A stretch of DNA of 2,270 bases. Origin: Escherichia coli (GTDB lineage: Bacteria; Pseudomonadota; Gammaproteobacteria; Enterobacterales; Enterobacteriaceae). The notes below the pieces were generated by a model. That model saw only the letters and a list, made by a program, of their open reading frames with translations, searched no databases and was not told the origin of the DNA. Each line of letters opens with the position of its first letter. Position 1 is the stretch's first letter. Location of the stretch: NCBI RefSeq assembly GCF_003334255.1, contig NZ_QOWU01000138.1. One strand, 5' to 3'. Both the position numbers and the translations under genes were made by a program. Positions 1 to 2,270 of the stretch are shown piece by piece.

Positions 1-25
1 GTAAGCGTAAAGCCAATGCCGTCTG
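1..25. repeat. Left terminal inverted repeat (IRL) of the IS66-family element; inner boundary approximate
   Basis: The window starts with 5'-GTAAGCGTAAAGCCAATGCC..., the terminal motif typical of IS66-family inverted repeats. The inner extent cannot be fixed because the right inverted repeat is not in the window for comparison. Confidence 0.55.
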
Positions 26-34
26 TAACACCTG

Positions 35-72
35 CTCCTTGCAGACTAAATTAGAGCTCCTTCTAAATTAGA
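35..72 (+). promoter_or_regulatory. Subterminal imperfect tandem repeat (CTCCTT[GCAGA]CTAAATTAGA / CTCCTTCTAAATTAGA) overlapping a candidate tnpA promoter; possible transposase-binding or promoter region
   Basis: Seen in sequence: CTCCTT at 35-40 and 57-62; CTAAATTAGA at 46-55 and 63-72. A TTGCAG -35-like hexamer lies at 39-44, with AT-rich -10 candidates (TCTAAA 62-67, TAAATT 65-70) 17-20 bp downstream. Functional role is inferred only. Confidence 0.25.
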
Positions 73-73
73 C

Positions 74-77
74 GGAG
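74..77 (+). promoter_or_regulatory. Shine-Dalgarno sequence (GGAG) for tnpA
   Basis: GGAG at 74-77 lies 8 nt upstream of the ATG at 86. Confidence 0.5.
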
Positions 78-85
78 TTCTATTG

Positions 86-520
86 ATGGATAAACCTACA
101 GACTGGCGCTCCGGAACCCGCCGGATATTTTCTAATGAATTTAAACTTCATATGGTTGAACTGGCTTCGAAACCAAATGCCAATGTTGCACAACTGGCCC
201 GGGAACATGGCGTTGATAACAACCTGATTTTTAAATGGCTACGCCTCTGGCAAAGAGAAGGACGTATTTCTCGTAGAATGCCTCCAACTATTGTAGGCCC
301 TACAGTATCACAATCTTTTCCGGCCTCTCCGACTCTGGTTCCAGTGGAACTTATCGACACCCCGCGCTGTGCTACAGATGCTCCTGCTCCGGAGGCATTA
401 TCAGTTGCTTGTGCAGCTTCCTGCCATGTGGAATTCCATTACGGTAAAATGATGCTGGAAAATCCTTCACCAGAGCTGCTCACGGTGTTGATCCGTGAGC
501 TGACCGGGAGGGGACGATGA
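86..520 (+). CDS. tnpA: IS66-family TnpA (orf1): small helix-turn-helix transposase accessory protein
   Basis: The six-frame track gives ORF 83..520, but 83 is a TTG. The ATG at 86 has GGAG 8 nt upstream and is the preferred start, giving 144 aa. The N-terminal region (RRIFSNEFKLHMVELASKPNANVAQLAREHGVDNNLIFKWLRLWQREG) resembles the HTH 'transposase_8'-type domain of IS66 orf1 proteins. The stop TGA overlaps the tnpB start. Confidence 0.85.
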   Translation: MDKPTDWRSGTRRIFSNEFKLHMVELASKPNANVAQLAREHGVDNNLIFKWLRLWQREGRISRRMPPTIVGPTVSQSFPASPTLVPVELIDTPRCATDAPAPEALSVACAASCHVEFHYGKMMLENPSPELLTVLIRELTGRGR

Positions 521-867
521 TTTCACTCCCATCAGGTACCCGTATCTGGCTCGTTGCCGGCGTTACTGATATGCGTAAATCCTTCAACGGTCTGGGGGAG
601 CAGATACAGCATGTGCTGGATGATAACCCCTTCTCCGGTCACCTGTTTATCTTCCGTGGCCGACGGGGAGACATGATTAAAATCCTGTGGGCTGATGCTG
701 ATGGTCTGTGCCTGTTCACCAAACGCCTTGAGGAAGGTCAGTTTATCTGGCCTGCGGTGCGTGACGGTAAGATATCCATTACCCGCTCGCAACTGGCAAT
801 GCTCCTCGATAAGCTGGACTGGCGTCAGCCAAAAACATCCCGCCTTAACGCACTGACAATGTTGTAA
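517..867 (+). CDS. tnpB: IS66-family TnpB (IS66 Orf2-like protein), 116 aa; function in transposition not defined
   Basis: ATG at 517 overlaps the tnpA stop (ATGA at 517-520) and is preceded by GGGAGGGG at about 503-510. Size and sequence (IWLVAGVTDMRKSFNGLGEQIQ...GHLFIFRGRRGDMIKILWADADGLCLFTKRLE) are typical of IS66 Orf2 proteins. Stop TAA at 865-867. Confidence 0.88.
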   Translation: MISLPSGTRIWLVAGVTDMRKSFNGLGEQIQHVLDDNPFSGHLFIFRGRRGDMIKILWADADGLCLFTKRLEEGQFIWPAVRDGKISITRSQLAMLLDKLDWRQPKTSRLNALTML

Positions 868-890
868 AAAACTCCTGACCGCATTATAAA
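862..890 (+). promoter_or_regulatory. Candidate sigma70-like promoter in the tnpB-tnpC spacer (TTGTAA -17 bp- TATAAA)
   Basis: Seen in sequence: TTGTAA at 862-867 (overlapping the tnpB stop codon) and TATAAA at 885-890 with a 17-bp spacer. The predicted transcription start would fall at about 896-898, at the tnpC ATG. No experimental support; hexamer match only. Confidence 0.18.
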
Positions 891-897
891 AACGGCC

Positions 898-2270
898 ATG
901 AGTCAGAAATACCTCATTCGCATCGCTGAGCTGGAAAGGCTGCTCTCTGAGCAGGCTGAAGCCCTCCGTCAGAAAGACCAGCAACTGAGTCTGGTTGAAG
1001 AGACGGAGGCCTTCCTGCGCTCTGCACTGGCACGTGCCGAAGAAAAGATCGAAGAAGATGAACGGGAAATAGAGCATCTGCGGGCTCAGATAGAAAAACT
1101 GCGCCGGATGCTGTTCGGAACCCGTTCTGAAAAACTGCGTCGTGAGGTTGAACAGGCTGAAGCCCTGCTGAAACAACGCGAGCAGGAAAGCGATCGTTAC
1201 AGTGGGCGTGAGGATGACCCGCTGGTTCCCCGCCAGTTGCGACAGTCGCGCCATCGTCGTCCGTTACCGGCACATCTCCCCCGTGAAATATACCGCCTGG
1301 AGCCTGAAGAAAGCTGTTGCCCGGAGTGTGGCGGTGAGCTGGATTATCTGGGGGAAGTCAGCGCAGAACAACTGGAACTGGTGAGCAGCGCCCTGAAAGG
1401 GATCCGCACAGAACGGGTAAAAAAAGCCTGTACAAAATGTGACTGCATCGTTGAAGCACCGGCACCATCCCGTCCGATAGAGCGTGGTATCGCGGGCCCG
1501 GGGTTACTTGCCCGCGTGTTAACGGGAAAATACTGCGAACACCTGCCACTGTATCGTCAGAGTGAAATCTTTGCCCGCCAGGGTGTCGAACTGAGCCGTG
1601 CCTTACTCTCCAACTGGGTTGATGCGTGCTGCCAGTTAATGACTCCGCTGAATGATGCCCTGTACAGTTATGTGATGAACACCCGCAAGGTTCACACTGA
1701 TGACACACCAGTAAAAGTACTGGCACCGGGCAGGAAGAAGGCGAAAACAGGATATATCTGGACGTATGTCCGGGATGACCGAAATGCCGATTCGCCAGAA
1801 CCTCCGGCGGTCTGGTTCGCCTACTCACCGGACCATCAGGGTAAACATCCGGAGCAACACCTTCGTCCCTTCCGGGGTATCCTGCAGGCAGATGCGTTCG
1901 CAGGTTACGATCGGCTGTTCAGTGCCGAACGTGAAGGCGGCGCGTTGACGGAAGCAGGATGCTGGGCTCATGCGCGGCGCAAAATCCACGATGTATATAT
2001 CAGTACCAAAAGCGCGACGGCGGAAGAAGCACTGAAACTAATCGGCGAACTGTACGCCATTGAGCACGAAATACGCGGGTTGCCGGTGTCTGAACGCCTG
2101 GCGGTCAGGCAAATGCAGAGTAAACCGCTACTGACTTCCCTGTATAAGCTGATGCAGGAGAAAGAACACACGTTATCGAAAAAATGCCGTCTGAGAGATG
2201 CGTTCCGGTATATCAGGAAGCACTGGGTTGCGTTGTGCAACTTCTGTGATGACGGTCTGGCGGAGGCGGA
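898..2270 (+). CDS. tnpC: IS66-family TnpC DDE transposase, 3'-truncated by the window edge (457 codons present, no stop)
   Basis: Open frame from ATG 898 to the window end with no stop, which is why it is absent from the ORF track. Translation begins MSQKYLIRIAELERLLSEQAEALRQKDQQL... (heptad, Leu/Glu-rich coiled coil). It has Cys clusters CCPEC (1315-1329) and CTKCDC (1429-1446), candidate catalytic residues in HTDDTP (1699-1704), QADAFAGYD (1891-1911) and EAGCWAHARRK (1951-1980), matching the IS66 transposase DDE signature. The antisense ORFs across this span are shadows. Confidence 0.92.
   Translation, partial: MSQKYLIRIAELERLLSEQAEALRQKDQQLSLVEETEAFLRSALARAEEKIEEDEREIEHLRAQIEKLRRMLFGTRSEKLRREVEQAEALLKQREQESDRYSGREDDPLVPRQLRQSRHRRPLPAHLPREIYRLEPEESCCPECGGELDYLGEVSAEQLELVSSALKGIRTERVKKACTKCDCIVEAPAPSRPIERGIAGPGLLARVLTGKYCEHLPLYRQSEIFARQGVELSRALLSNWVDACCQLMTPLNDALYSYVMNTRKVHTDDTPVKVLAPGRKKAKTGYIWTYVRDDRNADSPEPPAVWFAYSPDHQGKHPEQHLRPFRGILQADAFAGYDRLFSAEREGGALTEAGCWAHARRKIHDVYISTKSATAEEALKLIGELYAIEHEIRGLPVSERLAVRQMQSKPLLTSLYKLMQEKEHTLSKKCRLRDAFRYIRKHWVALCNFCDDGLAEA

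Follow-up and report, generated by a model that had tools for sequence, protein, structure and literature searches.

Which mobile element does this stretch of Escherichia coli DNA belong to, and does it begin exactly where the element begins? The stretch (2,270 nucleotides of contig NZ_QOWU01000138.1, assembly GCF_003334255.1, hereafter the window) had been taken, in a preliminary description made from the letters alone, for the left portion of an IS66-family element starting at its terminus. Our analysis leaves very little doubt that the window corresponds to bases 1-2270 of ISEc43, a 2541-bp insertion sequence of the IS66 family of E. coli, of which it covers the left 89%. When the window was compared with RefSeq copies whose tnpC gene is annotated as 'IS66-like element ISEc43 family transposase', 99.8-100% identity was obtained over all 2270 bases, and the copies so labelled have the same gene order, coordinates and ends. 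No evidence contradicts this identification. ISEc43 is already known, catalogued and very frequent on the chromosomes and plasmids of E. coli, and the finding is an ordinary one. The window brings no new biology; its value lies in annotation, as the left boundary of ISEc43 is exact and the element can be named.

The position of this boundary was established from the flanking DNA. The window sequence opens with GTAAGCGTAAAGCC, and the motif GTAAGCG occupies bases 1-7. Copies were compared in seven contexts (loci L001, L002, L003, L004, L005, L006 and L007), which included a plasmid arylsulfatase-regulator gene, islands carrying iroN, pic, sepA and sat-iha, and an integrative element. In each of these contexts base 1 is preceded by unrelated DNA, so that the flanks diverge precisely at base 1, in agreement with the proposal that the window begins at the element terminus with GTAAGCG. 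These results demonstrate that ISEc43 truly begins, on its left side, at base 1 of the window. The left terminal inverted repeat, which begins GTAAGCGTAAA, extends over positions 1-25 on the plus strand, as judged from the divergence of the flanks at base 1 and from its match to the right end.

The right end, the length of the element and the target duplications were observed in relatives of the window. Intact copies (L002 and L003) are 2541 bp long and carry the terminal sequence ...AATAAGCGTCAATACGGTGCTCCGTTGACGCTTAC (end ...TTGACGCTTAC), which places the right end 271 bp past the window end. This distance falls within the 250-400 bp predicted in the preliminary description, but the sequence found there differs from the exact reverse complement of bases 1-25 that had been expected: the left end and the reverse complement of the right end match at 8 of the first 8 bases, 10 of 11 and 16 of 25. 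An exact reverse complement of bases 1-25 is absent from the right end of ISEc43, and a search for an exact copy would fail. Imperfect terminal inverted repeats beginning 5'-GTAAGCG are a hallmark of the IS66 family, and such repeats are present here, the left one in the window and the right one in intact relatives. The 8-bp direct repeats anticipated at both termini were also found: perfect 8-bp target duplications flank the element in four contexts, with the sequences AAATATCC (L001 and L009), CGAAAGGC (L002), CTTAATAC (L003) and ATATAAAT (L007). Three other contexts (L004, L005 and L006/L008) are devoid of duplication and appear rearranged. As a separate observation, TAAGCGTCAA and TTGACGCTTA at the right end of ISEc43 can form a perfect hairpin of 10 bp, the loop of which is 12 nt long (L002 5509-5540, corresponding to element positions 2509-2540, outside the window). 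This hairpin begins at the tnpC stop codon, so that the terminal motif is repeated, facing inwards, 22 bp inside the ISEc43 end.

The gene and domain content was established in the window itself. Three open reading frames (ORFs) lie on the plus strand in the order tnpA-tnpB-tnpC, an order already given in the preliminary description and with which the annotation of identical copies agrees. The assignment to the IS66 family holds as well, since family-specific IS66 models match TnpB (NF033819, PF05717) and TnpC (NF033517, PF03050, PF13005, PF13007), and TnpA matches HTH_Tnp_1. The tnpA gene (86-520) encodes a helix-turn-helix protein of 144 aa, a putative accessory protein (PF01527 HTH_Tnp_1, E 2.7e-10); an in-frame TTG is present at position 83 and a GGAG is found 8 nt upstream of the ATG. 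With the NCBIfam IS66 TnpA models, the protein scored 68 against a cutoff of 74 (NF047595) and 62 against a cutoff of 150 (NF038385). Because TnpA falls below both curated cutoffs, the RefSeq coding sequence with the same coordinates (WP_001309734.1) bears only the product name 'transposase'; the lineage to which this TnpA belongs is not well represented in current models. The tnpB gene (517-867) encodes an IS66 accessory protein of the Orf2 family of 116 aa (PF05717, E 3.6e-36; NF033819, 119 bits compared to a cutoff of 50). Its ATG is preceded by GGGAGGGG and overlaps the tnpA stop codon in an ATGA at positions 517-520, read directly from the sequence, which suggests that translation of tnpA and tnpB may be coupled.

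The tnpC gene starts at position 898 and runs on the plus strand to position 2270 and beyond the window end. Codons 1-457 of the 537 codons of this DDE transposase gene are present (NF033517, 354 bits compared to a cutoff of 180) and no stop codon is encountered, in line with the earlier statement that the window stops inside tnpC. From the N-terminus, TnpC comprises a leucine-zipper or coiled-coil region (aa 60-130, nucleotides 1075-1287; PF13007, E 2.4e-12), a zinc-finger region with the sequence CCPEC ... CTKCDC (aa 138-182, nucleotides 1309-1443; PF13005, E 4.8e-10) and the DDE_Tnp_IS66 catalytic domain (aa 196-454, nucleotides 1483-2259; PF03050, E 5.3e-81), which aligns with model positions 1-251 of 284. 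The catalytic domain displays the motifs HTDDTP (aa 266), LQADAF (aa 329) and CWAHARR (aa 355), and the DNNTAER motif, which begins at nucleotide 2269, is cut by the window end. In intact relatives the full TnpC is 537 aa long and comprises, in addition, the remainder of the DDE domain and a small C-terminal PF13817 domain.

How widespread the element is was determined by megablast against complete E. coli genomes. The window matched 4613 records from 3312 of the 5426 genomes, at 7496 chromosomal and 2343 plasmid places, with up to 46 places per genome; 379 E. coli records were at least 99% identical to it. Alignments start from base 1 in thousands of records. In PLSDB, 2949 plasmids, mostly from Escherichia and Klebsiella, matched the window. 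The window is present at 2270/2270 in four public assemblies (L009, L010, L011 and L012), all at one common plasmid insertion site, and the plasmids NZ_CP060062.1 and NZ_CP060058.1 carry it at 2269/2270 and with 2 mismatches, respectively. The match in the four assemblies and in NZ_CP060062.1 is far beyond chance. Outside these genomes, the record 'Escherichia phage ECO111 5-P' (OR844780.1, 4468 bp) contains the window at positions 903-3172 with 99.5% identity, ISEc43 making up more than half of this record, and several lambda-like phages carry an IS66 relative about 89.5% identical to the window.

These distribution data also bear on a very different reading, namely that the window is not the end of a mobile element, that its GTAAGCG is coincidental and that its genes form a domesticated or chromosomal transposase-like operon. 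No point in support of this reading was found. Chromosomes and plasmids carry one and the same 2541-bp unit in unrelated surroundings, sharply delimited at base 1 and with 8-bp duplications, and this unit reaches the copy number given above within a single genome, so that we regard a domesticated operon as extremely improbable.

Several points nevertheless qualify the identification as ISEc43 or the picture of this copy. The name ISEc43 was taken from RefSeq/PGAP labels, used as a proxy for identity with the ISfinder reference. The window is devoid of the last 80 tnpC codons, which include the region of the presumed catalytic glutamate, and of the right end. A consensus scan detected no sigma-70 promoter in the 85-bp leader, and the counts of predicted promoters and terminators were at chance level. 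Compared to the widespread intact TnpC WP_000080172.1, the TnpC of the window carries two substitutions, V168G (nucleotide 1400), which is located inside the zinc-finger region, and G298D (nucleotide 1790); this G168/D298 haplotype was seen in a single plasmid insertion lineage only, the left flank of which is GCGAAAATATCC. Finally, no study was found that addresses the structure or biochemistry of any IS66 transposase, and the mechanism outlined below is therefore proposed by analogy.

Is the copy from which the window comes intact, or is its transposase gene interrupted? To the right of the window, one of two sequences is to be expected: the remaining 271 bp of ISEc43, or a nested ISEc45 that begins after 53 bp. 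With the nested element, about 1445 bp of ISEc45 and then 219 bp of ISEc43 would follow, and the right end would be located about 1717 bp past the window. The preliminary description had held that tnpC running into unrelated sequence would speak against an IS66 element. Such a transition was indeed seen 53 bp past the window in most of the exact or near-exact matches, but the sequence entered is that of a nested ISEc45. In L009, L010 and L011 and in the plasmids NZ_CP060062.1 and NZ_CP060058.1, tnpC is interrupted after element position 2323 by ISEc45, a 1.45-kb element of the IS110 family, resulting in a chimeric ORF of 522 aa. Since the remaining 219 bp of ISEc43 and then the AAATATCC duplication follow the insert, the nested ISEc45 is no argument against the IS66 identity. 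Past the window end, an intact copy reads ...GGAAAGAAAAATTACGTGTTCTTCGG / ...AAAAATTACGTGTTC, whereas the ISEc45 junction reads ...GGAAAGAAAAATTCTTATGGCC / ...AAAAATTCTTATGGCC.

It is probable, with some reserve, that the window derives from such an ISEc43 copy interrupted by ISEc45, which would produce no full-length transposase and could be moved only with TnpC supplied by another copy. The closest complete records, NZ_CP060062.1 and NZ_CP060058.1 (1 and 2 mismatches), are both interrupted after position 2323. The exact 522-aa chimeric TnpC with G168/D298 is encoded on six contigs, and the three loci that were read among them (L009-L011) contain the window at 2270/2270. Moreover, the ISEc43::ISEc45 junction is found in 633 E. 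coli records. By contrast, the window ends before the insertion site and holds no direct evidence of the insert, and in L012 (GCA_001299315.1), which likewise matches the window at 2270/2270, the left flank is that of L009-L011 but tnpC is uninterrupted and encodes 537 aa.

L012, which is an uninterrupted element with exactly the haplotype of the window, speaks in favour of the other reading, in which the window derives from an ISEc43 copy that is complete, uninterrupted and potentially active; the three reading frames are, in addition, all open in the window. Among the exact matches found, this type is the rarer one (1 contig compared to 6). Furthermore, L012 has no 8-bp duplication on its right side, where the flank has been replaced and a truncated gene of the IS110 family adjoins the element, and this locus must therefore be considered rearranged. 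We hold an intact source to be rather doubtful. Regarding the right side of L012, the abutting gene (5618-6178 of CYUC01000053.1) is a truncated DEDD_Tnp_IS110 unrelated to ISEc45 at the DNA level, which suggests either that the locus was rearranged or that another element of the IS110 type is associated with the IS66 end. It should be noted that the window alone cannot tell the interrupted from the intact state, and that the activity of this copy cannot be judged from it. The interrupted copy remains the reading that we prefer.

The insertion of ISEc45 was examined further in other copies, at a site that lies outside the window. A 240-bp query across the ISEc43::ISEc45 junction was fully present in the 633 records mentioned above, from 598 genomes, and full-length ISEc45 was detected in 625 records from 587 genomes; from these two counts, nearly every ISEc45 copy is at this junction. 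The 11 copies that were inspected (six sampled evenly down the ranking and five met earlier) all have IS66-family tnpC fragments on both sides, belonging to ISEc43, ISEc23, ISEc22 or an unnamed element. ISEc45 copies are located at 5324-6768 in L001, at 5121-6566 in L004, with a second one at about 7400-8690, and at about 401-1846 in L013-L018. The site always reads ...AAAAA(T/C)T, ISEc45, T(A/T)(C/T)NTGTTCTT, a pattern consistent with a 2-bp CT/TT core that would flank the insert. ISEc45 showed 0 mismatches over 1447 positions across four ISEc43 copies that differ from one another by several single-nucleotide polymorphisms, and a distinct ISEc45 variant occupies the equivalent site in L001. 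Identical inserts in differing ISEc43 copies, together with the variant in L001, argue for repeated site-specific insertion.

The ISEc45 protein corresponds in NCBIfam to 'IS110 family RNA-guided transposase', and the position bias fits RNA-guided site-specific insertion. Downstream of the ISEc45 transposase gene, a 250-nt non-coding region (L004 5121-5375, minus strand) folds better than shuffled sequences (z -2.9). The fold has a predicted internal loop, one side of which, GUAAAAGAAUU, is similar to the left target flank (7 of 10 positions) and the other, CACGUAGAAAGA, to the complement of the right flank (6 of 6). In the variant of L017, the 5' loop side is identical to its own left flank at 10 of 10 positions, and the few positions that vary from one ISEc45 copy to another are concentrated in the predicted loop segments. 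Guide-target covariation is not strict among the ISEc45 copies, as L001 and L014 carry mismatched guide/target pairs, and 6-mer guide/target matches alone are at about chance level. An Rfam scan of the whole ISEc43::ISEc45 composite at a permissive threshold gave no match. Overall, these predictions are suggestive, not proof, of a bridge or seek RNA guide loop that might be encoded in the 3' non-coding region of ISEc45.

We tentatively propose, with somewhat less than even confidence, that the conserved codons at ISEc43 positions 2322-2323 (TnpC LGKKN|YVFFGS) are a dedicated landing site of an RNA-guided ISEc45, nearly all E. coli copies of which would be nested in the tnpC of IS66-family elements (ISEc43, ISEc23 and ISEc22). 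If so, ISEc45 would be a parasite of a parasite, inactivating the transposase of its carrier. Its site preference would then provide a natural example of IS110-type RNA-guided target choice, one that could be used in a study of guide-target tolerance. No paper describing the target choice of ISEc45 was found; it may be recorded in ISfinder.

Regarding the remaining features of the window, the 85-bp leader between the left terminal repeat and tnpA contains two exact 10-bp direct repeats, CTAAATTAGA, at positions 46-55 and 63-72 on the plus strand (46-72 overall), 17 bp apart. These repeats are partly conserved in ISEc23, in which TTAGA and TAGACGGA are kept, and they could be a putative binding site or part of a promoter. 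Three long antisense ORFs on the minus strand (532-1254, 914-1273 and 1358-1828) gave no NCBIfam match and were treated as spurious. No match was obtained in the window when it was scanned against Rfam at a permissive threshold.

How such an element would move can be outlined from its relatives. As in other three-gene IS66 elements, a single left-to-right transcript would yield TnpA, TnpB and TnpC. TnpA would act as a small helix-turn-helix DNA-binding protein, and TnpB as a small accessory protein whose synthesis would be coupled to that of TnpA through the ATGA. TnpC, in which a coiled coil at the N-terminus is followed by a CxxC...CxxC zinc finger and an RNase-H-like catalytic domain, would be the DDE transposase. 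Aided by TnpA and TnpB, it would recognise the imperfect terminal repeats beginning GTAAGCGT, and a staggered cut at insertion would give rise to the 8-bp target duplication. For ISEc43, we infer by analogy with IS679 and IS66 that transposition would depend on DDE chemistry and on all three genes, and that TnpA and TnpB would have accessory roles. In IS679, TnpA and TnpB are reportedly both needed alongside the DDE transposase TnpC; to our knowledge, no transposition experiment exists for ISEc43 itself. Searches of the PDB with the TnpB and TnpC sequences returned no relatives of solved structure, and a literature search on the IS66 mechanism and on ISEc43 and ISEc45 returned only survey papers.

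The organisation described here can be set beside that of known systems. IS679 and IS66, which are said to be the experimentally studied members of the family, resemble the element of the window in their tnpA-tnpB-tnpC order, the overlap of tnpA and tnpB, imperfect terminal repeats starting with GTAAGCG, an 8-bp duplication and a length of about 2.5 kb, but they are different elements from ISEc43 at the nucleotide level. ISEc23 shares the GTAAGCGTAAA terminus and the gene organisation of ISEc43; over the first 200 bp, identity reaches about 80% of the aligned columns, whereas its leader and inner terminal repeat have diverged. RefSeq labels ISEc23 and ISEc22 as elements separate from ISEc43, and both share with it the conserved tnpC position targeted by ISEc45. 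The ISBst12 subgroup of the IS66 family possesses a related DDE transposase, but elements of this type consist of a single ORF and have neither tnpA nor tnpB (PMC12898284). Since the window contains all three genes, the element to which it belongs is assigned to the canonical IS66 group and not to ISBst12.

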